Positions 1 to 21,768 of a stretch of 24,001 nucleotides of DNA are shown here, in pieces. The DNA comes from a virus. Its lineage: Duplodnaviria > Caudoviricetes. Below the pieces are notes generated by a model. The model saw only the letters and a program-made list of their open reading frames with translations, was not told the origin of the DNA and did not search any database. Where the stretch lies: IMG/VR virus record IMGVR_UViG_3300012953_000227, positions 1-24,001 of that record; one strand, 5' to 3'. Positions within the stretch are counted from its first letter, which is position 1; each line of letters opens with the position of its first letter. A program made the translations under genes and the position numbers.

Positions 1-1
1 C

Positions 2-85
2 GATCAGCTTCGCAAGAACATACTTATGTATGCACTCGAATACGGTATCAATACCGGAATGACAGTGAGGCGTGATAATGTCTAA
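2..85 (+). CDS. 3' end of a hypothetical protein (partial)
   Basis: Frame 2 is open from the window edge (DQLRKNILMYALEYGINTGMTVRRDNV*) and overlaps the next start. The frame choice is uncertain because frame 1 is also open to 75. Confidence 0.3.
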   Translation, partial: DQLRKNILMYALEYGINTGMTVRRDNV

Positions 86-281
86 GAAGCCGAATTTTAT
101 TGTGCGCTTCGAAGAAGTGCAGCGCATCGATGTTAAAGTTTTTGCTAAAGACGAAGATGATGCTCGTAGCAAAGCTATGAGTGACGCCAGCGTAGATTGG
201 CAGTACGCGAAAGCTAAATCGCAAGAGCGTATTAAAGAGAAAACGATAGTCAAAATTCCAAAAGTGGCGAAAATATCATGA
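78..281 (+). CDS. hypothetical protein (67 aa)
   Basis: ORF MSKKPNF..., GAGG upstream, ATGA-coupled to the next ORF. Confidence 0.7.
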   Translation: MSKKPNFIVRFEEVQRIDVKVFAKDEDDARSKAMSDASVDWQYAKAKSQERIKEKTIVKIPKVAKIS

Positions 282-490
282 GTAACGATACTGTATTAGC
301 GTCACAAGTTACCGATATCAAACAAAGGTTTCTGTATTACGGGTTTTTAGCGTCACCGCTAACGACCCGCGAGATAGTTAAGCTATTGATGCGCGGCAAA
401 AGTCACGACGATATTTACAGCATCGGTTGCGATTTAGCTTGCGGCTATTCATGGTCGGAAACTTTACATGGAGATGGCGATAAATCATGA
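278..490 (+). CDS. hypothetical protein (70 aa)
   Basis: ATGA overlaps at both ends. Confidence 0.75.
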   Translation: MSNDTVLASQVTDIKQRFLYYGFLASPLTTREIVKLLMRGKSHDDIYSIGCDLACGYSWSETLHGDGDKS

Positions 491-669
491 GTAAGGCGAA
501 GTCTTTAATGGTGCAAGTTATTTACTACGTACATCTTACACCAAACGAGTATGCCGAATATGAAAAGGGTAAGGACCCACGAACTTTTAAGAACTGTGTA
601 AGTGGTGATCCGGATGAGCTCGAAGTAGAAGACGGTGACCCGTGGAATATACTCGATCATGAACAGTAA
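487..669 (+). CDS. hypothetical acidic protein (60 aa)
   Basis: ATGA overlap; GGAG upstream (470-473). Confidence 0.7.
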   Translation: MSKAKSLMVQVIYYVHLTPNEYAEYEKGKDPRTFKNCVSGDPDELEVEDGDPWNILDHEQ

Positions 670-823
670 TCTTATTATTGCGTATGATCTCAAACACCAA
701 ATCGAAAATCTACCATCGCAGCAACGCGACAGTAAGGTTGTCGATGGTGGCGACACAGAGTTAACAATGTACGAGCGAATATGCTTGATAGTCATTGCAC
801 TCGAATTAGAAGGCCGGACGTAA
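659..823 (+). CDS. hypothetical protein (54 aa)
   Basis: ATG at 659 overlaps the previous stop; the stop codon lies in the terminator hairpin. Confidence 0.6.
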   Translation: MNSNLIIAYDLKHQIENLPSQQRDSKVVDGGDTELTMYERICLIVIALELEGRT

Positions 824-838
824 GTCTGGCCTTTTTTT
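811..838 (+). terminator. intrinsic terminator
   Basis: AGGCCGGAC-GTAA-GTCTGGCCT stem with GNRA loop, followed by a T run. Confidence 0.9.
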
Positions 839-864
839 CATTTTAAACGTGCGTTGCTTACAAG

Positions 865-886
865 CGCAAATTTTTGCCCTTAGTGG
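865..886 (+). promoter_or_regulatory. putative phage RNA polymerase promoter, copy 1
   Basis: CGCAAATTTTTGCCCTTAGTGG, 20/22 identical to the copy at 1657; followed by GGAGGT RBS and ATG 909. Confidence 0.75.
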
Positions 887-908
887 ACTAACTACTATGG
901 AGGTAACG

Positions 909-1127
909 ATGTCTATTGAACTAAACTTAAACGGTGTTGACGGCAACGCGTTTGCTCTTATCGGGCATGCACGATCATACGGCAGACAACTCGGCTTATC
1001 GCAAGATGAGATCGAGGAAATCAGTAATGATATGATGTCGTCAGACTATACTCATTTACTCAAAGTGTTCGACAATAATTTCGGCCATGTAATTAAACTT
1101 GTACGAAATGAGGTTGACGATGAGTGA
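909..1127 (+). CDS. conserved small phage protein (GxDGNAF...SxDY motif)
   Basis: Strong GGAGGT RBS. LNGVDGNAFALIG...MMSSDYTHLL resembles a widespread phage hypothetical family. Confidence 0.85.
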   Translation: MSIELNLNGVDGNAFALIGHARSYGRQLGLSQDEIEEISNDMMSSDYTHLLKVFDNNFGHVIKLVRNEVDDE

Positions 1128-1494
1128 AATTAAGTGGCCTACCGATGTAGGTGAAGTAGTTCTCGAAGTAATCGAGAATGCTTGGGATAATAATGTGCAC
1201 AATAACAGCTTGGGAAGTGCCTTTGCCGAAATCAAGCAGTTTGTTATTGACAAAACAACGTGGCGTGCACACGAGCTTAATTGTCAAGCTACGGTTAATT
1301 TCACGGCTACAATTAAAGTGCCTCCGGGCACTGATTTTGACGATGATTTTATTGTTAGCGAAATTGTTCAGCAAATGGACGGTTATGTTGAAGTTAATGC
1401 TAGCTGCAACGATGATGAGCTAGACGAAGGCTGTGTGTTGACAGACATCACAGACGAAGAAATCAACGACTTCATACTTTCTGACGCAACGTGA
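1120..1494 (+). CDS. hypothetical acidic protein (124 aa)
   Basis: GAGGT RBS before ATG 1120; overlaps the upstream stop. Confidence 0.8.
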   Translation: MSEIKWPTDVGEVVLEVIENAWDNNVHNNSLGSAFAEIKQFVIDKTTWRAHELNCQATVNFTATIKVPPGTDFDDDFIVSEIVQQMDGYVEVNASCNDDELDEGCVLTDITDEEINDFILSDAT

Positions 1495-1589
1495 GACTAA
1501 TTAAGTGGCTAGTCGTAGCCGCTATAGCACTAACCGTTTTTTCAATTGTGTTTCTAGCATTTATTGCACGAAACAATATGCGTGAGTGA
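1491..1589 (+). CDS. small single-pass membrane protein (32 aa)
   Basis: GTGA-coupled start; MRLIKWLVVAAIALTVFSIVFLAFIARNNMRE; ends just before the terminator. Not in the ORF track. Confidence 0.6.
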   Translation: MRLIKWLVVAAIALTVFSIVFLAFIARNNMRE

Positions 1590-1612
1590 ATCCCTCCCAA
1601 GACCACGCATAC

Positions 1613-1643
1613 GAGGCGGGCCGACGGGCTCGCCTCTTTTTTT
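1613..1643 (+). terminator. intrinsic terminator
   Basis: GAGGCGGGCC-GACG-GGCTCGCCTC followed by T7. Confidence 0.9.
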
Positions 1644-1656
1644 CGTTTATTTCGAG

Positions 1657-1678
1657 CGCAAATTTTCACCCTTAGTGG
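1657..1678 (+). promoter_or_regulatory. putative phage RNA polymerase promoter, copy 2
   Basis: CGCAAATTTTCACCCTTAGTGG, followed by GGAGGT RBS and ATG 1703. Confidence 0.75.
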
Positions 1679-1702
1679 ACTTAACTAACGATGGAGGTTG
1701 AT

Positions 1703-1906
1703 ATGGGTCTATCACGAAAACATTTTATCAATATATCGAAACATATTCGAGAAGCTAATATGCCTCGCGAATATAAACTCGATCTTGCAAGTCATCTTGC
1801 ATCTTATTTCGTAGACGATAATCCGCAATTTAAGCTCGACAAATTTATGCGTGCTTGTGTTTCGGATGTCACTGACGAGGAGGTGCGTTATGGCTGGCGA
1901 GCGTGA
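1703..1906 (+). CDS. conserved small phage protein (RKHF...DNPxF...KF..AC type)
   Basis: GGAGGT RBS; MGLSRKHFINIS...FVDDNPQFKLDKFMRAC. Confidence 0.85.
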   Translation: MGLSRKHFINISKHIREANMPREYKLDLASHLASYFVDDNPQFKLDKFMRACVSDVTDEEVRYGWRA

Positions 1907-2273
1907 TAAAAAATCTAAAAAGTTTCGAGCAAACCAAAGCGGGGATTTTCCGTTTTCATATGCTGATGATGCTGAAATGTTCGAAACAAGTGATGTCGAA
2001 GGTTTTGACCACGAAGGTAATTGGATTAAAGATCCAACGATTTCAGAATGTGGTCGATTCCCTGTTGGTTCGGATTATTATAAAGACGGAACAACACGTG
2101 ATGAATTAGTCGAGAAGTATCACGACTTGTACGTTAGACATGTAGTCAACAGCGGTGATCCTTACGGTGCCGATTGGCGAACCATGAGGATTACTAAGCC
2201 TGAAGTTTACGAAACTATGAAAGAGTTACTTGCTCGTATTCGTGCTCATGATGACGGTGTTTGTCATGAATAA
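1890..2273 (+). CDS. hypothetical protein (127 aa)
   Basis: GAGGAGGT RBS before ATG 1890. Confidence 0.8.
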   Translation: MAGERDKKSKKFRANQSGDFPFSYADDAEMFETSDVEGFDHEGNWIKDPTISECGRFPVGSDYYKDGTTRDELVEKYHDLYVRHVVNSGDPYGADWRTMRITKPEVYETMKELLARIRAHDDGVCHE

Positions 2274-2625
2274 GTTCGTTAAACAAAGGCTTAAATTTGA
2301 TGGATACGTCAAAGCTCAGTTTATTTGCGGCGACGATTTTGGTTCAGTTCGACCTTACCAAGGTTGGCATAATCCAAAATATCGTTGGAACGGCTGGGCG
2401 ATGCCTATGTTCGGCAAAGAAGAGTTTCGTAGGTTTGTTAAAGATCTCAAAACTAACGAGTTCGAATGTATGGTAGATATGACTAAACACGATTGGAAAG
2501 AAACTCAAATCGAAAATCTTCACGAATTTATGTCTGAAGTAATCGAAGCGCTTATTGATCCAAATCCTTACGGTATGTATTCATTTAAAAATGCTGATTG
2601 GTGTTGGGACGATGTGAAGTCATGA
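2266..2625 (+). CDS. hypothetical protein with WNGWAMPxF motif
   Basis: Overlapping start; YQGWHNPKYRWNGWAMPMF resembles a motif seen in phage/plasmid accessory proteins. Confidence 0.75.
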   Translation: MNKFVKQRLKFDGYVKAQFICGDDFGSVRPYQGWHNPKYRWNGWAMPMFGKEEFRRFVKDLKTNEFECMVDMTKHDWKETQIENLHEFMSEVIEALIDPNPYGMYSFKNADWCWDDVKS

Positions 2626-2957
2626 CTTTTTTCGAAGAATGTTTATCTGACTTTATCGATATAATTCCAAAAACGTGGGTATACGAAGGCTTTGCTAACG
2701 ACGCTTGCCCTTCGTACTCATTTAATGGATGGCAAATTTTCATCGATCATCCTGACCCTGACAAAAGGGAATTGAAACCGATGGAAAGATTTGGCGTTAT
2801 CGTCTTTGAGAATTACGGCAACGGTCTTCGTATCGACACGCCGGAGTTTAATACAGAAGACTTTCAAAAGGTTTTGGAATATGTAAGCAAACCTGCTCCG
2901 AAATATGAGCAGGACGAAAATTGTAACTACGTTGAGGTCAAGAACGAGAAAGGCTGA
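2622..2957 (+). CDS. hypothetical protein with NDACPS motif
   Basis: ATGA coupling; W...NDACPSY...IFIDHPDPDKRE; the stop lies in the terminator. Confidence 0.8.
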   Translation: MTFFEECLSDFIDIIPKTWVYEGFANDACPSYSFNGWQIFIDHPDPDKRELKPMERFGVIVFENYGNGLRIDTPEFNTEDFQKVLEYVSKPAPKYEQDENCNYVEVKNEKG

Positions 2958-2979
2958 GCGAAAGCTCGGCCTTTTTTTT
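2951..2979 (+). terminator. intrinsic terminator
   Basis: AGGCTGAGC-GAAA-GCTCGGCCT followed by a T run. Confidence 0.9.
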
Positions 2980-3006
2980 CATATAAACGAAAAATTTTTT
3001 AATAGA

Positions 3007-3125: not shown

Positions 3126-5036
3126 TTACTGTATCTCGCAGCTCCCTGCTGCACAGGCGAGCTCTTGGCTTCCGACAGTCTCATCAGTCTGCTCAACCAG
3201 AGCTTCCCAATTAATCGTCGTAGGCATAATTGTCTTGTATTCGTTGTATGTGTCAGGATCTGTTTCCTGATACGGCGCTTGTCTATATGTGCCGCCATCG
3301 TACGGCAAGAAACTGATGCCACTTACGATGTCAAAGTTATTCCATACCCAGGCACCGACCTCAGGCCACTCAGCCTCGGTAACAGACACAGTGATAGACG
3401 GCTTATGCTCACACCAATGCAGCTGGTATGTCTTCCAGAGCTCTAAGTGCTCCATAGCTGTCATATCGTGTCTAGTGATGCACGCTTCAGGCGCTTTTAC
3501 AGGAAATGTGAATACCGTTGTTGTATCACCTTTCATGACGCATGGTTCCGCAGGCACCCCCGCATCTTTTAAGAACTGTGTAAGCGGATCTTTATTATCG
3601 CCCCGGACAGTCCGCAGGTAATACTTGCTATGACGAGCATGGATACCGCTCGCACTGTCGACCAGTTGAGACACTGTGCCACTCGGTTTAACGCAAGTGA
3701 TCGCAGCGGACTCATTTATCTTGAGTGCCTTGGCCATCTTCTTATTTGTCTTGCGGGCAACGTCCCTAAGTGACTCAAGCAGCTCTGGGAGCTCCCTAGA
3801 CGCCGCCTCTGACTGACCAGCAGTCAATGGGCTGTCTAGTATGCCGGTAAGTGAAACACCTAACAGACGCTCATCCTCTGTGTTCTTTTTCCAAATCTTC
3901 CGAAGGTACGGAAAGTTTGTAAAAGTTGATTGAATTGACCCGAGGACACTGGCGACTCTAACTTTATCTCTGAGAGTATCTTTAGTGTCGTCGGGCCGAA
4001 TAACGACCTCGGTGAGGTTACAGAACTGATACGGACGCAAGATGATCTCGCTGCACGGATTAGTTCCGAAGTCATAATTTGCATCTCTGCCGCCAAATTG
4101 TTCAGCTTGCCTTTGAGACGCAACGCGATTGAAGATACCTCGTTCGCCAGAGTGTGAGTCATATAGTGATACCCACTCGCGCATAAAGGCGCCTACATCA
4201 GGTTTTTCGGTATAACAAACGCTATTGTTCGCTAAGGCGCGCTGGCCATTTTGTGACCACCATTCGCCTGACTTAGCATGGCGCATGCGATCATCGGTCA
4301 GATTAGACAGGCTAATCATTGCTGACCTGCGGACACCGCCGACCACTACGACCTCGCCGATCTTGCACATGAGGTCATGGCACTCGACGGAGGTTAGCTT
4401 ACGTCCTGCGGCTTGTTTAAATAGGTTTACTGTAAATTCGAATAGTTCGACTAGCGGCTCAGGTCCTGAGGCTCTGCCGCCAAACTTTTTGAGACGTGCA
4501 CCTGCGGGTCTTACGCGGCTTGTGTCCCATTTAGGCACCTCACCGCTGTAAAGCAGTGCTATGAGCTGCCGGAAGGCTTTAGACCAGCCCTCTTTGCTGT
4601 CTCTCACTACAATAGTGATGTCATTGTCATAGAGTGTCTCGGGGATCTCAGGTAGCTTGCTTACATATTGACGCTCAACACTGAAGCCGACGCCGGTGCC
4701 ACACATGAGAATAAACATAGTCTCATCGAAGGCTTTGACGTCATCGATTGGTAAATAGCTGCAATTGTAGCCACAGGTGTTGTCTCGATCTAATGCTTCA
4801 CCTGCGGTCATTAAGGCACGCATAGATGGCATTACTTCTTTAGCGACAATGTACTGGCGTGCCTCATCGACATGCTCGTGTACTGATTTTGGCACATGGG
4901 ACTTGATGTACTTAATGTATCTATCGACAGTCTCGGTCCAGTGCTCTCTTCTTTGGTGTTCTTCTAGGTACTTTGCGTACCTCGATTTATGGATAAACTC
5001 TTGATACAGAGTCTCGGGATTATTATTTAGTGTCAT
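3126..5036 (-). CDS. nrdJ: class II (adenosylcobalamin-dependent) ribonucleotide reductase, monomeric RTPR-like
   Basis: GYNCSY, GTNPCSEI, CNLTEV, TCVKPSGT and a C-terminal CAAGSC Cys pair; no beta-subunit gene. Confidence 0.93.
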   Translation of the reverse strand: MTLNNNPETLYQEFIHKSRYAKYLEEHQRREHWTETVDRYIKYIKSHVPKSVHEHVDEARQYIVAKEVMPSMRALMTAGEALDRDNTCGYNCSYLPIDDVKAFDETMFILMCGTGVGFSVERQYVSKLPEIPETLYDNDITIVVRDSKEGWSKAFRQLIALLYSGEVPKWDTSRVRPAGARLKKFGGRASGPEPLVELFEFTVNLFKQAAGRKLTSVECHDLMCKIGEVVVVGGVRRSAMISLSNLTDDRMRHAKSGEWWSQNGQRALANNSVCYTEKPDVGAFMREWVSLYDSHSGERGIFNRVASQRQAEQFGGRDANYDFGTNPCSEIILRPYQFCNLTEVVIRPDDTKDTLRDKVRVASVLGSIQSTFTNFPYLRKIWKKNTEDERLLGVSLTGILDSPLTAGQSEAASRELPELLESLRDVARKTNKKMAKALKINESAAITCVKPSGTVSQLVDSASGIHARHSKYYLRTVRGDNKDPLTQFLKDAGVPAEPCVMKGDTTTVFTFPVKAPEACITRHDMTAMEHLELWKTYQLHWCEHKPSITVSVTEAEWPEVGAWVWNNFDIVSGISFLPYDGGTYRQAPYQETDPDTYNEYKTIMPTTINWEALVEQTDETVGSQELACAAGSCEIQ

Positions 5037-5077
5037 TGTTGTTGTTTTCCGTAGGACCCTAGGGTCTAAAGTGCGGC

Positions 5078-5332
5078 TTATAAACGAGTTAGTATGCCCA
5101 TAACGAGCAATGCAGCCGCTGCCGCGTTCATAATCATTAGTGCTCGGTCATGCCAAATGATGGCTACAATGAGCCATCCGATGGTGCCATTGAGCGTAAG
5201 TGCCATGTCTAAAACGGTGTGATAGTCGGCTGCACGTATCGACAGCCCGATCATAATAAAAGCGGTAGAACACCACTTCAGCCACCAATCAAACGTATGT
5301 GTTGGCGTAACTTTTTTTATCATTCTTGTCAT
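5078..5332 (-). CDS. small multi-pass membrane protein (DUF6552-like)
   Basis: KKVTP...DWWLKW...GWLIVAIIWHDRALMIMN. Start moved to ATG 5332 because the upstream part of the track ORF is a structured RNA and terminator. Confidence 0.75.
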   Translation of the reverse strand: MTRMIKKVTPTHTFDWWLKWCSTAFIMIGLSIRAADYHTVLDMALTLNGTIGWLIVAIIWHDRALMIMNAAAAALLVMGILTRL

Positions 5333-5345
5333 TATTCGCTCTCTT

Positions 5346-5381
5346 AAAAAAATGCCCCCTGCAACAGTTGCTACAGGGGGC
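5346..5381 (-). terminator. intrinsic terminator closing the ncRNA
   Basis: Minus strand GCCCCCTGTAGC-AACT-GTTGCAGGGGGC-A-T7. Confidence 0.85.
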
Positions 5382-5522
5382 CTATTTGTATGGGGATTTT
5401 CACCCCGACAAAACGCGTGCCAGTCTCCACATGCACATCGCTCTGCCAAACTGTACGAACTGCCTCAGACAGAAGCCTGAGGCAGCCCGGACAAAACTAA
5501 AGATATGGAGATCTTTAGTCCC
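5346..5522 (-). ncRNA. putative structured phage ncRNA (~177 nt, five hairpins)
   Basis: Begins at the GGG of promoter copy 3. Stems 5493-5522, 5457-5488, 5407-5447, 5392-5406 and 5354-5381; most close fully only with G-U pairs on the minus strand. Ends in a terminator. Confidence 0.75.
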
Positions 5523-5542
5523 AATAAGTGTGTTAATTTGCG
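5521..5542 (-). promoter_or_regulatory. putative phage RNA polymerase promoter, copy 3
   Basis: Minus strand CGCAAATTAACACACTTATTGG, 18/22 identical to copy 2. Confidence 0.7.
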
Positions 5543-5856
5543 TCTGAACTTTCCAACAACTCAATCAGCATTTTGCAGTATTGTTTTGCTTTTTTGATGT
5601 CTTCGGCACCGTTCTTGCGTTTATAACGTGACGCATATTTTATGATATTGCCTGCATAATAGTCTTCGGCAATACCAATACTTTCCATAAACTCAGCTGG
5701 CTCTATGCCGCCGATATTATAATGAGCTGGTCTGCTTACCGGATCGGTGTTTTTTTGTTTGTTGCGATCTGGATTAGCAGCCCGTGCCAGACGACGTAGA
5801 AAATCGCCGTGTCTTTCGCCTTCTATTGGCTTGATTTTATCTTCTTCGGCTTCCAT
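5533..5856 (-). CDS. DUF3310 family protein (T7 gp1.7 nucleotide kinase-related)
   Basis: DPVSRPAHY...GIE...GNIIKYASRY..KNG.EDIKKA..Y signature. Confidence 0.85.
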   Translation of the reverse strand: MEAEEDKIKPIEGERHGDFLRRLARAANPDRNKQKNTDPVSRPAHYNIGGIEPAEFMESIGIAEDYYAGNIIKYASRYKRKNGAEDIKKAKQYCKMLIELLESSDAN

Positions 5857-13078: not shown

Positions 13079-15574
13079 TTAGCTAAATGCGTATTTGCTT
13101 CGTATTACTTCCCCAATGTCCAAATCGCCTTTTTGAGGTGGCATTGTTAATTTATCGGTGGCATCACTAGCTACTGCTTGAAAACATCCATCGTACAAAT
13201 CTTGGAAAACATCGTATTGCTCGTACATAGCAACAAACTGTTCACGAATAACGTGACCAAATTGTGCTGTTTCGTTGCAATGCGTAGCAAAACTATCGTG
13301 GATCAACATAAAATCATTTATGCCGTGATCCTCGTGTGCCGCTAACACGCTGTACATTAAGTGCGAGGCGTCTAGCGAATGGATAAAATTTGGCGCAGCA
13401 GCATTGCGTTGCTTCGTTTTATCAATCTTACCTGTAGGCTTACTTCGTAAATTAAGCATGATGCAATTGTAGACGTCGCCGTCTTTGTTGACCTTGCTAT
13501 TTTTACTTGCTTCCGAAGGAATAATGTCCTTGTCGTATAAAAATATACGTACCCTGTTTATGTCCCACGTTTCATAGTGGTGCACGACAGGTAAGCCTAT
13601 AGGCGAAGTCCATATTAAAGGCTTACGCTCGTGTGCTAGCACTGCAGCGCAATTTTGTATGAACTTCATACCTTCGGCAGCTTTTTCAACAACATCAGTA
13701 ACAGAACGCCATACTCGACCTGCGAGGTAACCTGCTGCTCTTGATCCGTTGTCATCACCGAAAGGATGTGCATCGAGTGTACCTTCAAGAACATCTTTAC
13801 GTAGAGGCTCCATTAAGTCTTCGATAATTTGCTTTCTAAATCCAAACTGCTCGCTTGAGTAAGCAAATGTCATAACATTACGCTTAACAACTTTACGAGT
13901 TACACCATATTGTAACCATTGCTCGGCTTCTGGGTGTTCGAAATCATTGTTAATGGTTTCGTTCACCAAGTCTGCCACTTCTTGGTATACGTCTTGTGGT
14001 TGCTCTTCATCTGTAAGATTTACGAGCCGACCGGCTTGGCGGTCTCTAAGTGCGGCGCTATAGTGTTGCACGCCGCTGTTTGCTCCATCCATCGCTGGAG
14101 GCAAGTGACAAACGTAGTCATCGCCTTCTTCCATATATCGAGCAAATTCCATGCATGCTGCAAGAAAGCAAAACGGTTTATCAGCGTTGTGCCAAAACTT
14201 TTTCGTTAAGCCTGGTTTTCTTGCAATTGCATAAATTAAATTTTGATTTTGGTTTACCCACGCCACGCGTTCATCAAAAGATTTTTTACTAATCTTGTCA
14301 AAATCGCCGCAATTAGCGACATGAACCGCTAGCCAATAAGACCCGTCTGGTCCTAATTTTTTGCCTTTGGCAAACAAGAACAGCGACCTTACAAAGTCTG
14401 CTCGTTGATGGTTGAATGACGGTATAGGATATACACGACCACGAAAATCCAAATTATGAGGCAGATAAAACTTATCGTGCTTCGATAATTCTTTAGCAAT
14501 TTCAATATCAGCACGAAAATTAACCATGTCAGCATCGACTGCACGGTTTTGCAGTATTACTGCTTCTCGTTGTTTTTTAATGTGCTTGCGTTCTTCGTAG
14601 TCAAGGACATCCCAATTATCAGTCTTTTTCTCGACCTTAATTTTTCGTGCTTTTGGAAATTTAGCTATTTTTGCCTGTTCATCGTAACTTTGAATTACAA
14701 CATCAAGAATTTCCGTATTAATCTTAAAAGCTGTGTTTTGAATTAAGTTAAGGGCTTTTAAGACACGATCTAAATTTCCCGAGGCCAAACGACTTTGAAT
14801 CAACGTTTGCTGATCTTTGCTTGCTTTTCGCACCATAGGTACAAGTGAACTTACTCGCGGATCATGATATGCGCCGGTGTCAAAGTCTACCCAAGCCTTC
14901 GGCTTAGCTAACATTGGTCTGAAACACGGATACATCCATTGTGCTTGATCGCCTAAGTCAGCAACTAATCGCTGACCAGTTTCAGTAAGACCTAACGCCT
15001 TTGCAAAATATTGTTTTTTAGGCTTATCATAGATTTCAAATAAGCCTGATCCGCGAATTACTGCGTTAAGTACCGCAGATCCTACGTTGATATTTTGCTC
15101 TGGCTCCCAAATTTCTCTCGGATAACCTTCGCGCCCAGCGACAGCTGACATAGCTTTGAGTCTATGTTTTTGCGAATTATGGTTTTTCGTTGCCATACGG
15201 AAAATTCTTTTAAAAAGAGCTTCGTCTTTTGCTTTTAGATCTAAAGCCCATAGCTCTATGGCAACTTGCTTTCCAATTTGAATACATGTATTCGTTACAT
15301 CTGTGTCTTGACCAATAGCTGTAAATGCTTGGTTTAAGCCTATGTACGCCGACACTCCATTATCTAAAGTCTTAAGCGGATAAAACCAAAATGGTTTTTT
15401 ATTTATTGGTGTTGTAAATGCTAAGTCTTGTTCGATGCATCTACATACCTCTCTCATTGTCGCTGCAGTTAGTTTAGTTTCTACGGATCCTAAGATACCT
15501 GCAGCTTTAATTTGTTCTTGCTGTTTTCGGTACCTTTCCGCACCGTCCTCCAGCATTAGATCTTCAGTCAGCAT
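13079..15574 (-). CDS. single-subunit DNA-directed RNA polymerase, T7 gp1-like
   Basis: DFRGRVY, DGANSGVQH, RKVVKRNVMTFAY, APNFIHSLDASHL, IHDSF and C-terminal YAFS; ATG 15574 follows GGGGG. Confidence 0.97.
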   Translation of the reverse strand: MLTEDLMLEDGAERYRKQQEQIKAAGILGSVETKLTAATMREVCRCIEQDLAFTTPINKKPFWFYPLKTLDNGVSAYIGLNQAFTAIGQDTDVTNTCIQIGKQVAIELWALDLKAKDEALFKRIFRMATKNHNSQKHRLKAMSAVAGREGYPREIWEPEQNINVGSAVLNAVIRGSGLFEIYDKPKKQYFAKALGLTETGQRLVADLGDQAQWMYPCFRPMLAKPKAWVDFDTGAYHDPRVSSLVPMVRKASKDQQTLIQSRLASGNLDRVLKALNLIQNTAFKINTEILDVVIQSYDEQAKIAKFPKARKIKVEKKTDNWDVLDYEERKHIKKQREAVILQNRAVDADMVNFRADIEIAKELSKHDKFYLPHNLDFRGRVYPIPSFNHQRADFVRSLFLFAKGKKLGPDGSYWLAVHVANCGDFDKISKKSFDERVAWVNQNQNLIYAIARKPGLTKKFWHNADKPFCFLAACMEFARYMEEGDDYVCHLPPAMDGANSGVQHYSAALRDRQAGRLVNLTDEEQPQDVYQEVADLVNETINNDFEHPEAEQWLQYGVTRKVVKRNVMTFAYSSEQFGFRKQIIEDLMEPLRKDVLEGTLDAHPFGDDNGSRAAGYLAGRVWRSVTDVVEKAAEGMKFIQNCAAVLAHERKPLIWTSPIGLPVVHHYETWDINRVRIFLYDKDIIPSEASKNSKVNKDGDVYNCIMLNLRSKPTGKIDKTKQRNAAAPNFIHSLDASHLMYSVLAAHEDHGINDFMLIHDSFATHCNETAQFGHVIREQFVAMYEQYDVFQDLYDGCFQAVASDATDKLTMPPQKGDLDIGEVIRSKYAFS

Positions 15575-15635
15575 GTTTGCCCCCAAAATTGAGAATAATG
15601 ACTAGTGTTCACTAAAGAGCGGCTTTTTAGCGCAT

Positions 15636-15772: not shown

Positions 15773-15837
15773 TGGCGCACCGGGGAAGATTCGAACTCCC
15801 GACCCCTTGATTCGTAGTCAAGTACTCTATCCAGCTG
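15773..15837 (-). other. attP core: 3' 65 nt of tRNA-Arg(ACG), 5'-truncated
   Basis: Minus strand CAGCTGGATAGAGTACTTGACT-ACG-AATCAAGGGGTCGGGAGTTCGAATCTTCCCCGGTGCGCCA. The 5' acceptor strand (expected GCACCGG) is absent. Adjacent to the integrase 3' end. Confidence 0.92.
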
Positions 15838-15893: not shown

Positions 15894-16730
15894 TTAGGAG
15901 TTCACCGCATCATAAAGGTCATCATCATCAATATGCGCATAACGTAGCGTTGTTTGAATTTTTGAATGACCTAACATTTTTTGCACCATAGCGATGTTTT
16001 TCGTCTTGCGCAGCAAGCGAGTAGCACAGCTATGTCTTAACATGTGCAGCACAAATTGTTCGTCATTTTCAAGACCAATGTCCTTTTTGGCACGACACCA
16101 AAAATAATATAGACGCCAGTCTTCTATGTCGAACGGCACAAACTCGTTTATAAGAGCCTTTGCTCGCGGGGTCATAGGGACTGACCGCGGTTTACCTGTT
16201 TTGGTTTTCCAGAGACGTAACCAGTCTCCATCGATGTTGTCAGGTTGCAAATTTAATAGCTCCCCCCGCCTCAAGCCAGTATCAATCAAGATAATGACTG
16301 CTGCGCGAGCTTGCTCGTACATGTGCAGTTTTCTAGGATTTGAGCATTTATTAATTCGCTCTTGCATAACTTGTAAAAGGTTACGCTCCTCTACATCCGT
16401 AAGCCAACGCACTCTGTGCTGGTTTTCAGTTTTCCAACTAAAGTGCGGCTTTTTTAAAAGCCACTCACGTTTGTGCGCATAATCAAGCACGCTGTGCAGC
16501 ACACTTAAGTTACGATTAATCGTACTGTTAGTGAGCGGCGTGCCTTTATGCGAGATGGTATTTTCTAACTTCTTTGTAAGTTCGTCAATCATCTCCGTAT
16601 TAATATCATTGATCTCTGGATCATTTAGATATTGAACAACACGTCTAAGTTGTGACTTAAAAATATCAACACCTTTGCAGTCCTTCCACAAAGGTTCGAT
16701 TGATTTGTCGTTAAGTTCCGACAGTTTCAT
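15894..16730 (-). CDS. int: tyrosine recombinase / integrase
   Basis: TGLRRGEL, KTK, HMLRH and LGHSKIQTTLRY give the full R-K-H-R-H-Y catalytic set. Confidence 0.96.
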   Translation of the reverse strand: MKLSELNDKSIEPLWKDCKGVDIFKSQLRRVVQYLNDPEINDINTEMIDELTKKLENTISHKGTPLTNSTINRNLSVLHSVLDYAHKREWLLKKPHFSWKTENQHRVRWLTDVEERNLLQVMQERINKCSNPRKLHMYEQARAAVIILIDTGLRRGELLNLQPDNIDGDWLRLWKTKTGKPRSVPMTPRAKALINEFVPFDIEDWRLYYFWCRAKKDIGLENDEQFVLHMLRHSCATRLLRKTKNIAMVQKMLGHSKIQTTLRYAHIDDDDLYDAVNS

Positions 16731-16752
16731 TTTTCGTTCCTTTCCTTGAAAT

Positions 16753-16800
16753 CAAAAAACACCGGTCCACGGTATGTGAACCATGAATCAGTGTTTTTTG
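16753..16800 (-). terminator. long hairpin / terminator between lysis genes and integrase
   Basis: Minus strand CAAAAAACACTGATTCATGGT-TCACAT-ACCGTGGACCGGTGTTTTTTG; ~21 bp with G-U pairs and one mismatch. Confidence 0.7.
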
Positions 16801-16822
16801 CGTCTGAAAAGGGATGAGTATA

Positions 16823-19432: not shown

Positions 19433-21768
19433 GATTGGCACCCGCAGCACGCAGATTTCAGTTCTTCGACTTCTGCTTTTAGGTCTTTGATGGCTTCAAT
19501 CAGCAGACCAACCATATTTCCGTAAGCGACGGAGTAATGACCCTCTTCATCTCCAGTTACGGCTTCTGGTAAAACCTCTAAAACTTCTTGAGCGATAACA
19601 CCTGTTTGACGAATTGGCCTGTCGGGTGTTCCTTCATCGTCAAAACTCACATCGGTTCGGTCAAAGGTGTATCCGCTTAACTGACAAACTTTATCGAGAG
19701 CATCGGGAATTTGCTCAATATTGGTTTTGACGCGAATATCTGAATAGGCTGTGACATTGCCTGAAGTCCAAATGTTGGAACCCATTGCGGCTGTACCGCC
19801 GCCGTTTTGACACCAAACCATCATGTGTCCACCGGCCATAGTCCCGCCGGTACCGTTGTTGGTGTGCTTGTATGCTAATCCGTAAAGGTTTCCAAAGTTT
19901 GTTCCCGAAGCATGGTTGCGGTACGCCGTACCCATCCCCCAAATATGGTCTGTAAGATGCGAACTATAAGTACCAAAGTTGCCTCTGCTTCGCGCAGAGG
20001 AAACAATGTCCCGTGATGTGCTGAGGTCACCGCTGGCGTTAAAAGTAAACCCATCGTGGCTCAAGGTGTTGCCACGAAGGTGAGTGGTATCGCCAGAGGA
20101 AGAACCTAAATAGGTATTAGTGGCGTAAAGGTAGGTGTTACCCACATCTGCTTTAATGTAAAAGTCACCGCCGGTGAAAGCTGTACGACCATTAGTGTCA
20201 CTATAGAAATAACCGTCGTTTCCGTCACCTGGATAAAACCTAGGTGCATATATGTATCTATTCGTGTCAATGACACTTGTGCCAGCCACTCTATAGCCAT
20301 TCAGCGCGTCCATTTCGCCAGCGTTAGCAGTCGCCGCGGAATAAGATGTTCCGGCGTAGACAGACCGCGCTAAAACATTTTGCGCTGCGCCACCATTTAA
20401 GAATTGGAAGTTTGACGAAGAGCTAAAGTTCCCGCCAGTAAGACTTGAGGTATTACCATCAAAAGCATCTGTGATGCCATATCCAGCGATGGTGGTTGGC
20501 TTACCTGTAACGTCAGCAAAGGCAGTGCTGCTTGCTACGTCACCAAAGGAGAAATTGCCCGCGCCATCGGTTTTCAAAGCCTGACCATTTGTTCCGTCAG
20601 ATATACTAAGATCGGTCAGGCTTGAGACAGCGGTTGCGCCAGTCGCAACTCCATCCAGTTTCGTGCCATCGGCTGAGACATCACGACCATCCACATTACC
20701 CGCTGTAATAAGGTTAGGGACTGTCACATCACCAGTAAAGGTTGCTCCGGATAGAGCAGCAAAGCTGCCACCGCTGACATAGGCGGCTACCCAAGCCGAG
20801 CCTGTGTAAAGCATCATTGTGCTTGTGCTGCTATTAAAATAAAGCGTGCCGGCAACAAGAGTGTTTCCGTCGTTGTCGTTGCTCGGATCGCTTGTCTTTG
20901 ATCCTAAATAGCGGTCATCGAATGAGTCAAAAGCTGCTAGCGCTGAGTCTCGTGCGGACTCTGCTGCTGTTTGTGCTGTTGCGGCGTTTGTTGCCGAGCC
21001 TGCTGCGGCGGTTGCTGAAGTTCCTGCGTTCGTTGCTTGTGTTCCGGCGTTAGTTTCTGCGGTTGCGGCGTTTGTCGCAGAGGTAGCAGCATTTGTTGCC
21101 TGCGTTGACGCTGAAGTTGCGTGACCTGACGCAGTATTTGAATGTGTTTGTGCATTTGTTTCCGATGTAGATGCTGCAGACGCCGAGCTAGAGGCTGCCG
21201 CGGCAGAAGTTGCAGCAGCGTTTGCTTGGTTTGTTGCGTTAGTAACTTCGGTTTGTGCGTTAGTTACTTCCGCTTGTGCGTTAGTTACCGATGTCGCAGC
21301 TGAATTAGCAGACGTTGCTGCATTTGTTTCAGACGTAGCAGCGTTGGTCGCCGATGTGGCAGCGTTGGTCGCCGATGTGGCAGCGTTCGTTTCAGAAGTA
21401 GCAGCGTTAGTTGCCGATACATTTGCCGCCGACTGACTATTTGTTGCAGATGTTGCCGAAGTTGCTGCACTAGAGACATGGTTGCTCGCCGATGTTACAT
21501 GAGCACTGGCGTTAGTTTCTGATGTTGCAGCTGCTGAAGCAGAGCCAGCAGCGGCAGTTGCCGAGTTGGCAGCAGCGGTTGCTTCATTGCTTGCATTAGA
21601 TGCCTCAGTTGCAGCTTGTGAGGCAGCAGTTGCTACTGACGCAGCGGATGTTGCCGCGGCAGCAGCCGAGTTTGCCGCATCAGTTTTACTAGTTTGTACT
21701 TGCGTAAGGAGATTCGGCAGATCACTTTCAGTCACGGATACCGACTGAAACACACTACTTTTTGACAT
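19429..21768 (-). CDS. tail fibre with Ala/Thr/Ser-rich shaft and C-terminal intramolecular chaperone (peptidase S74)
   Basis: ATNAATS-type heptads; FDDRYLG...YFN module; SDIRVKTNI...GVIAQEV...VAYGNMVGLLIEAIKDL. Confidence 0.92.
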   Translation of the reverse strand: MSKSSVFQSVSVTESDLPNLLTQVQTSKTDAANSAAAAATSAASVATAASQAATEASNASNEATAAANSATAAAGSASAAATSETNASAHVTSASNHVSSAATSATSATNSQSAANVSATNAATSETNAATSATNAATSATNAATSETNAATSANSAATSVTNAQAEVTNAQTEVTNATNQANAAATSAAAASSSASAASTSETNAQTHSNTASGHATSASTQATNAATSATNAATAETNAGTQATNAGTSATAAAGSATNAATAQTAAESARDSALAAFDSFDDRYLGSKTSDPSNDNDGNTLVAGTLYFNSSTSTMMLYTGSAWVAAYVSGGSFAALSGATFTGDVTVPNLITAGNVDGRDVSADGTKLDGVATGATAVSSLTDLSISDGTNGQALKTDGAGNFSFGDVASSTAFADVTGKPTTIAGYGITDAFDGNTSSLTGGNFSSSSNFQFLNGGAAQNVLARSVYAGTSYSAATANAGEMDALNGYRVAGTSVIDTNRYIYAPRFYPGDGNDGYFYSDTNGRTAFTGGDFYIKADVGNTYLYATNTYLGSSSGDTTHLRGNTLSHDGFTFNASGDLSTSRDIVSSARSRGNFGTYSSHLTDHIWGMGTAYRNHASGTNFGNLYGLAYKHTNNGTGGTMAGGHMMVWCQNGGGTAAMGSNIWTSGNVTAYSDIRVKTNIEQIPDALDKVCQLSGYTFDRTDVSFDDEGTPDRPIRQTGVIAQEVLEVLPEAVTGDEEGHYSVAYGNMVGLLIEAIKDLKAEVEELKSACCGCQS
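21235..21387. repeat. two 21-bp tandem repeat tracts in the fibre shaft
   Basis: GCAGCGTTGGTCGCCGATGTG exact x2 plus partial (21338-21387); TGCGTTAGTWACTTCSGYTTG x2 plus partial (21235-21288). Confidence 0.85.

Follow-up and report, generated by a model that had tools for sequence, protein, structure and literature searches.

What is encoded in the short interval between the DUF3310 gene and nrdJ of an uncultured marine podophage? The DNA analysed here, referred to as the window, is a stretch of 24,001 nt from one such record. Its minus strand carries genes for a SU10-type capsid, a lysozyme, a tyrosine integrase and a T7-like RNA polymerase, followed by replication genes, DUF3310, DUF6552 and nrdJ, and positions 1–3000 of its plus strand hold a series of small genes without known function (Table 1). 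The sequencing runs that contain this stretch are marine or aquatic metagenomes. Because the tRNA-Arg piece near the integrase is identical at 65 of 65 bases to a gene of G205 (301 genomes searched, class of G001, MAG titled Rhodobiaceae), the host is probably an alphaproteobacterium, a call that holds at class level only since tRNA genes are conserved. The best RNA polymerase matches listed were ~32% identical, and blastn found no match to the element in cultured phages. Relatives came from a sister clade whose polymerases are ~53–62% identical to that of the window (profile searches, RNA polymerase and exonuclease alignments). This clade was reached only through the alignments, a single exonuclease query having returned 41 loci, most of them from distant phages that lack the element. 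No prophage of the clade was present among 69 genome loci (best match 40% among the top ones listed), and a model of the cassette described below (R1) had no match in the 20 of those loci that were searched with it.

Table 1. Positions of the predicted RNA, its candidate targets and neighbouring features in the window.
Feature	Position	Strand	Remarks
Predicted target leader 1	885..911	+	GGAC ... AUGGAG ... ATG at 909; follows box 859–884
Predicted target leader 2	1677..1705	+	ATG at 1703; follows box 1651–1676
nrdJ	3126..5036	-	class II ribonucleotide reductase
T7-type phage-RNAP promoter-like motif	5066..5083	-	GCCGCACT core; lies before nrdJ
DUF6552 gene	5078..5329	-	membrane protein; 3′ of the terminator
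Predicted non-coding RNA	5346..5522	-	177 nt; window allele of the cassette; predicted ends
P5	5346..5381	-	intrinsic-terminator-like hairpin and U run
P4	5392..5406	-	lineage-specific 4-bp hairpin, 7-nt loop
P3	5407..5447	-	lineage-specific hairpin; loop 5422–5432 contains GGAG, could pair with the P1 loop
P2	5457..5488	-	aligns with the terminator hairpin of sister cassettes; U run missing
UUGUCC block (linker)	5489..5495	-	unchanged across the clade; antisense to the 5′-most bases of target leaders
P1	5494..5521	-	conserved guide hairpin; loop CUCCAU 5505–5510 antisense to target Shine–Dalgarno
Promoter-like box of the cassette	5523..5548	-	class common to opposite-strand units and integrase; overlaps the DUF3310 gene end
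DUF3310 gene	5533..5856	-	upstream boundary of the cassette
T7-like RNA polymerase	13079..15586	-	single-subunit
attP-like 65-nt piece	15773..15837	-	3′ part of a tRNA-Arg(ACG) gene, between integrase and RNA polymerase
Tyrosine integrase	15894..16730	-	preceded by a weaker promoter-box copy (16783–16808) and a terminator-like hairpin

Several features of gene layout were observed in passing. The related record G006 (20600–41775) has its structural genes in two blocks, the one for tail and ejection preceding terminase, portal and capsid; it combines a SU10-type capsid with a T7-like RNA polymerase. In the window, a tail-fibre-like gene contains repeats of 21-nt period (20969–21675), and an antisense ORF gave a weak Pfam ‘bee toxin’ match (E 0.005, below the cut-off) that was treated as noise.

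A reading of the sequence alone had described the interval as a minus-strand structured non-coding unit running from a promoter to a terminator through five hairpins, and this outline was confirmed. Positions 5340–5545 fold with −95.1 kcal/mol (z = −7.51; 0/200 shuffles as good), the five hairpins lie where they had been drawn, and a scan of the window with a matrix built from cassette promoters gives three hits (859, 1651 and 5548), the last of which is the promoter copy claimed ahead of P1. The exclusion of a cobalamin riboswitch and of a tRNA also stands: Rfam, searched with the nrdJ RNA motif included, returned no family at threshold for the window (best E 2.7), so the element is no described Rfam family, and neither ARAGORN nor the Rfam tRNA and tmRNA models detected a cloverleaf in it. 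Two close relatives (L001 and L002) keep all 62 tested pairs (186/186 cells across the three sequences), with P1 showing one compensatory change and P2 and P5 together three one-sided ones. This amount of covariation, which had been put forward as a check on the stems, is not significant in so small a set of three (160/500 shuffles). Contigs from 4 of 24 listed RNA-library runs were sparse and scattered, at depths of 2–5; they may be DNA and reveal neither ends nor expression.

The sequence-only reading had further proposed a tertiary fold with a possible kissing loop between P1 and P3. The complement itself exists, and only 14 of 2000 shuffles match it (a post hoc comparison). It never varies in the window, L001 and L002, and scans of the collection for the kissing-loop pair and the P3 apex gave chance matches plus the two close relatives only. 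The wider comparison of cassettes described next bears on whether this contact is a conserved function.

Comparison across the sister phages shows the element to be an allele of a variable cassette; in this clade of marine phages with an integrase and a T7-like RNA polymerase, the cassette occupies the interval from DUF3310 to nrdJ. The order of the cassette is a promoter-like box, optional cargo, a core consisting of CUCC and then UUGUCC, optional hairpins, a terminator, a T7-type promoter and the reductase gene. All 27 distinct cassette sequences carry the core and the upstream promoter-like box, and the terminator is common to those that are complete. The T7-type promoter lies downstream in 25/27, the other two being cut off; these 25 were picked by having that promoter, and every one of them carries the core. 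The TTGTCC block is invariant in 16/16 aligned cores. In 13 of these 16, CUCC is in or at the loop of a 6–11 bp stem that ends beside UGUCC, the window P1 being this hairpin, and in the remaining L287, L439 and L442 it is partly inside the stem. The core stems differ in sequence between cassettes yet still pair, with a modest covariation signal (23/500 shuffles, four distinct rows). RNAalifold on MAFFT alignments did not recover the P1 stem, which is why model R1 models only the terminator pairs; the window matches this model by construction. Rfam searches with loose thresholds (window, L354, L358 and the G006 arm leader) and at gathering score (ten sister loci) returned only tRNAs. In the G311 cassettes (L439 and L442) the parts are rearranged, such that the first stem takes up part of CUCC, and a large loop of the terminator hairpin contains another copy of it.

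The remaining hairpins of the window are distributed differently. CUCC is present in 27/27 cassettes, whereas GGAG between core and terminator is found in 3/27, all from the window's own lineage. The smallest allele (L354) is ~62 nt long, and the distance from core to cassette promoter ranges from 53 to 574 nt. Because GGAG is so restricted and the smallest allele so short, P3, P4 and P5 are best placed as later acquisitions of the window lineage, and the function of the family does not lie in the kissing loop. P2, without its U run, is likely a decayed terminator. Another lineage (L353:6200–6311, L355, L356, L357 and L358:6370–6644) carries a multi-stem module of another kind after the core and ahead of the terminator, again with a T-loop-like hairpin; L358 has further folded modules, and none of these has an Rfam match.

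A compact RNA that rests on the P1–P3 kissing loop, or alternatively one serving the DUF6552 gene and nrdJ as leader or attenuator, is for these reasons a quite improbable account of the locus. Its appeal is that the loop complement beats 1986/2000 shuffles, that P3 is identical in three genomes and that the P4 loop is what we take to be T-loop-like, but the GGAG partner is confined to three cassettes and the loop–loop pairs show no covariation. The leader version fails because nrdJ has its own T7-type promoter: terminator and promoter both separate the element from nrdJ, no Rfam riboswitch or nrdJ motif matched there, and the DUF6552 gene is absent from the sister cassettes inspected. Nor does the layout support transcription from a phage-polymerase promoter, as first suggested, since the T7-type motif is downstream and the upstream box is of a different class. 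The loop complementarity is better explained by a P1 loop that is antisense to Shine–Dalgarno sequences elsewhere in the genome.

The cassette slot also carries passengers and acts like a hotspot of insertion. A tRNA-Trp gene was found in 6/34 loci scanned (4 contigs), and small ORFs and extra hairpins occur as well. The tRNA-Trp(CCA) cargo is present in several lineages (L350:6174–6248, L360:6113–6186, L358:6268–6341), and a pyrimidine-dimer DNA glycosylase gene was observed as cargo, the cargo loci including L359:6130–6618 and L447. At L012:1775–1850 a tRNA-Trp copy differs from that of L013 by many C-to-T changes clustered over a short distance, and it now escapes detection by ARAGORN; these changes could be deaminase-type hypermutation or a library artefact.

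Where transcription begins matters for what the RNA could pair with. Besides the cassette, the integrase has the box in front of it, as do several opposite-strand units of small genes that are bounded by terminators. In four lineages the first stem starts at +1 or +2, the first G006 arm leader has an 11-bp stem from +1 onwards, and the tRNA-Trp genes of L350 and L360 start at +3 and +5, respectively, if +1 is the G that follows the box; from these positions we infer that transcripts start at this G. An almost invariant G was observed at the inferred +1 in 17/18 cassette promoters. With this start the box occupies −26 to −13, a geometry that fits neither sigma70 spacing nor the core region of T7-type promoters. 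Pairing through GGACAA requires transcription to begin at this G. If the box were instead read as a sigma70 promoter with 17-bp spacing, the start would fall downstream of GGACAAC, leaving only the loop side able to pair. The host RNA polymerase is more likely to be the reader of the box. The GCCGCACT-core motif before nrdJ, in turn, presumably resembles T7 promoters and looks like a true promoter of the phage polymerase. The promoter class, the leader arrays and the RNA are all absent from five outgroup genomes.

At the integrase, the box leads directly into a conserved hairpin with a U run (16745–16783 on the minus strand of the window; also G007–G010, G311, G313 and G314). This hairpin is likely an attenuator or a second tiny RNA, and it contains GGUCC, which could also pair with GGAC.

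On the opposite strand, units with the same class of box begin with GGAC(AAC), followed by a short A-rich spacer, GGAG and the ATG, which is the reverse complement of the two blocks of the core. To avoid circularity, the promoter matrix was trained on 18 distinct cassette promoters only, and 11 records were scanned with it. Among 62 opposite-strand matches, 41 had both a GGAC start and GGAG within ~30 nt, 3 had GGAG only (one of which reads GGAU and is wobble-compatible), 18 had neither and none had GGAC alone. Because no match carries GGAC by itself, GGAC goes with the ribosome site and not with the promoter. Up to six separate transcription units carry the tag at their 5′ ends, and no terminator was seen within these short leaders. 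A direct search for the pattern in five further clade records gave 1–5 leader matches besides the guide, on the strand opposite to it (controls, 0–1), and in five outgroup genomes it gave 0–1 matches. The records are related (window and G006; G008, G312, G314 and G315), so these counts are not independent.

The two leaders of the window stand out from its other gene starts. The GGAC–GGAG–ATG pattern before an ORF of at least 40 codons occurs twice in the window, at 885 and 1677, and when candidate starts are ordered by duplex energy these leaders take the first two places among 387; they do so again among 384 in a second ranking test. When folding of both RNAs is counted, the P1–P2 part is predicted to bind the two leaders with −8.3 and −11.0 kcal/mol, as against 0.3 to −3.6 kcal/mol at 30 other gene starts of the window; for the full RNA, binding to the two leaders is −6.3 and −8.6 (minimum free energy). 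Promoter-led starts exceed other GGAG-bearing starts at p < 0.02 in 9/11 records, the others being G314, with one target (p = 0.052), and G311, with the rearranged guide (p = 0.24). A shuffled-guide control gave 0/300 and is partly circular because the leaders were picked by motif; the start rankings, the matrix scan, the promoter-led comparison and the folding-corrected binding are free of this circularity. At most of the 30 other gene starts listed, the site is of the AGGA, AAGG or GAGG type. The guide binds at none of the 30, possibly a sign of avoidance.

One leader has a different architecture. The first arm promoter of G006 (L578:245–300, minus strand; G006 ~20245–20300) leads into a structured leader with an 11-bp outer stem and an inner hairpin, located before a GGACAA...GGAG site and without an Rfam match. 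It could partly pair with the 3′ arm of P3 and is absent from the top sites of a genome scan. A scan of G006 for separate P3 targets yielded no convincing leader.

Guide and leaders also vary together to some extent. The window-lineage guide reads UUUUGUCC, and 0/5 listed leaders of G006 start with GGACAAC; in the eight records with the guide GUUGUCC, 29/33 do. Similarly, AUGGAG, the complement of the window-lineage loop CUCCAU, is present in 4/5 leaders of G006 and in 10/35 of the other nine records. G010 is an exception, with the guide UUUGUCC and GGACAAC in 2/2 leaders. The window guide prefers its own leaders (−22.0 and −20.5 versus −13.4 to −19.4), and the guides of G007 and G009 bind the window leaders with −21.9 and −21.4, against −22.0 for the window's own guide. 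Cognate specificity is weak.

The comparisons show, at the level of sequence, a conserved core, a shared promoter box, GGAC...GGAG leaders and the complementarity of these leaders to the core. We consider it probable, at roughly three chances in four, that the cassette encodes a folded small RNA that binds the opposite-strand leaders in trans and blocks their translation, likely silencing putative early units.

Other accounts of the complementarity were weighed against this antisense reading. The GGACAAC block might act as DNA, either within the promoter or as the operator of a protein, with its inverted copy in the cassette acting at the DNA level or left behind when a promoter–leader unit was duplicated in inverted orientation, so that the two RNAs do not pair. 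The fixed distance between box and block in 41/41 cases is what such a site would produce, the geometry of the box is unexplained, and the 5′ arm of P1 itself resembles the start of a leader. Set against this, the tag is missing from the 18 opposite-strand boxes without a ribosome site and from integrase promoters, and cassette promoters of sister lineages lack it at +1, except for a few in which it is the 5′ arm of P1. The inverted copy, moreover, has its CUCC loop in a hairpin with compensatory changes, is accompanied by a terminator and lies 53 to 574 nt from the cassette promoter, and we therefore regard the DNA-level explanation as unlikely.

Still less probable is an anti-Shine–Dalgarno RNA directed at the host, where it would dampen numerous mRNAs. 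AbcR1 and AbcR2 of Alphaproteobacteria, which are host-encoded and act on host targets, are laid out with a C-rich motif in the first hairpin and another before the second (PMC5461406, available part), as is the present RNA, and the host here is likely alphaproteobacterial; the phage leaders would then match merely by having a host-type ribosome site. The motifs differ, however, being CUCC(A/G) and UUGUCC here against CUCCCA in the first hairpin and GUUCCC in the linker of the AbcR RNAs, and there was no Rfam match to AbcR. Other GGAG-bearing starts of the phage bind much worse, so the match needs the GGACAA tag. Host-directed and phage-leader roles could coexist. Least probable of all, the CUCC hairpin might be a decoy of the tRNA-Trp anticodon arm, in keeping with the tRNA-Trp genes in the slot (6/34 loci, 4 contigs) and with loops that in some cassettes read CUCCAAA, or TTGTC might be where a primase acts at an origin. 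In many of the loops the sequence is CUCCG and CCA is missing, and neither idea accounts for the match to the leaders.

According to the antisense model, the exposed CUCC loop and the UUGUCC linker would make first contact as two toeholds that flank the 3′ strand of P1. This strand would then unzip, giving an imperfect duplex of ~20 bp from the 5′ end of the leader to its Shine–Dalgarno sequence, and blocked ribosome loading would turn off translation of the first gene of each unit. In the full-length window RNA the linker is predicted to be paired with bases after P2; these bases, and P3 at the loop, may mask the toeholds until processing. A P1–P3 kiss would thus be a possible local switch in the window lineage, for which there are three invariant sequences only, and P3 may be a lineage-specific mimic of the targets. 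The guide itself may have arisen by inverted duplication of a promoter–leader unit, because the 5′ arm of P1 resembles a leader start.

The target units are inferred to be early genes. Close to where the arm begins there is a conserved gene, encoding 157 aa in G006, that is a homologue of gene 1 of pelagiphages HTVC200P and HTVC119P (E 7e-15 and 8e-17), in which gene 1 occupies the left end; no family was found for most arm genes. Such silencing could operate in a prophage, where the shared promoters would fire and need to be silenced and where the RNA would also act on incoming relatives as immunity. It could equally operate during lytic growth: because the cassette is the last part of the replication operon, RNA levels would increase through read-through in mid-infection, when the phage polymerase takes over, causing early shut-off. 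We favour the two settings acting together, a view with less support than the pairing. The integrase and attP of the clade fit the prophage setting, as does cassette cargo that would help a lysogen. No MarR- or CI-like repressor was detected among 80 small ORFs of G006 and the window, in which the sole helix–turn–helix is an HTH_39 in the replication block. The prophage setting is nonetheless not assured, because for T7-like cyanophages integration is reported to occur without stable lysogeny, and an integrase is no proof of lysogeny in T7-like phages (PMC8776855, in the text available). The most extended version, namely that a temperate marine T7-like clade without a recognised protein repressor uses one RNA, reading a common 5′ tag together with the Shine–Dalgarno sequence of every early transcript, both to silence these transcripts and for immunity to relatives, with P3 as a self-inhibiting decoy in the window lineage, is doubtful.

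The predicted mode of action has precedents among phage RNAs. The available text on C4 of phages P1 and P7 (PMC5320573) describes an RNA of three stems that RNase P cuts; its loops a′ and b′ pair in trans with two blocks, one of them over a ribosome-binding site, as is predicted here. The upstream block gives C4 its specificity, its target is an antirepressor operon, and it is tied to immunity and lysogeny in temperate phages. Two-block pairing with one block over the ribosome-binding site was found in silico for the present RNA as well, which uses one hairpin loop and a linker and has many tagged units as targets. Its fold differs, the Rfam C4 models had no match in the window or ten sister loci, and no antirepressor family was found among the arm genes scanned. 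The CI RNA of P4 is an RNA-only immunity factor that pairs with two target sequences and keeps lytic genes off; it is processed from the leader that it controls and causes premature termination (PMC4825925, available sections). By comparison, the present RNA lies at least 3.6 kb from its targets on the other strand, has its own box and terminator, and is predicted to block translation, unlike CI, which derives from the leader that also holds its targets seqA and seqC. P22 Sar and lambda OOP/aQ are small RNAs that silence phage genes post-transcriptionally in the lysis–lysogeny decision and are described as antisense to one gene each, whereas the RNA proposed here pairs imperfectly with many dispersed leaders. 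The part of a review of phage small RNAs that was available (PMC12197685) covers Sar, OOP, aQ, VpdS, PreS and 24B_1, none of them acting on a tagged set of early leaders. The best reading is that the RNA would work like C4 of P1 or CI of P4 without belonging to either family.

For temperate T7-like phages, lysogeny control based on MarR has been hypothesised in phages with integrase, attP and T7-like RNA polymerase side by side, as here (PMC10134795, available part). HTVC200P and HTVC119P have a MarR gene beside the integrase; none lies beside it in G006 or the window, and neither the promoter class nor the RNA was found in the two pelagiphages. Both contain a conserved GC-rich non-coding region of ~240 nt before the primase gene that looks structured (L609:9172–9420, L610:9341–9590). 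Within the literature searched, chiefly papers outside subscription, no paper listed dealt with the present RNA or with a multi-leader antisense RNA in T7-like phages. As far as this search reached, the RNA and its control scheme have not been described before; the supplements of PMC12197685 (38 phage sRNAs without function) and PMC12361551 may bear on novelty. The predicted targets are of more interest than the fold itself.

Among marine Autographiviridae, integrases are reported in 625 of 1143 populations (PMC12361551, in the text available), and for T7-like cyanophages the accessible text of PMC8776855 reports that no repressor was found. The cassette provides a concrete RNA-based candidate for holding lytic genes off, with a predicted guide, predicted targets and natural compensatory variants. 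If the antisense reading is true, an RNA of 60 nt able to silence whatever gene bears a short 5′ tag would also make a compact part for gene regulation.
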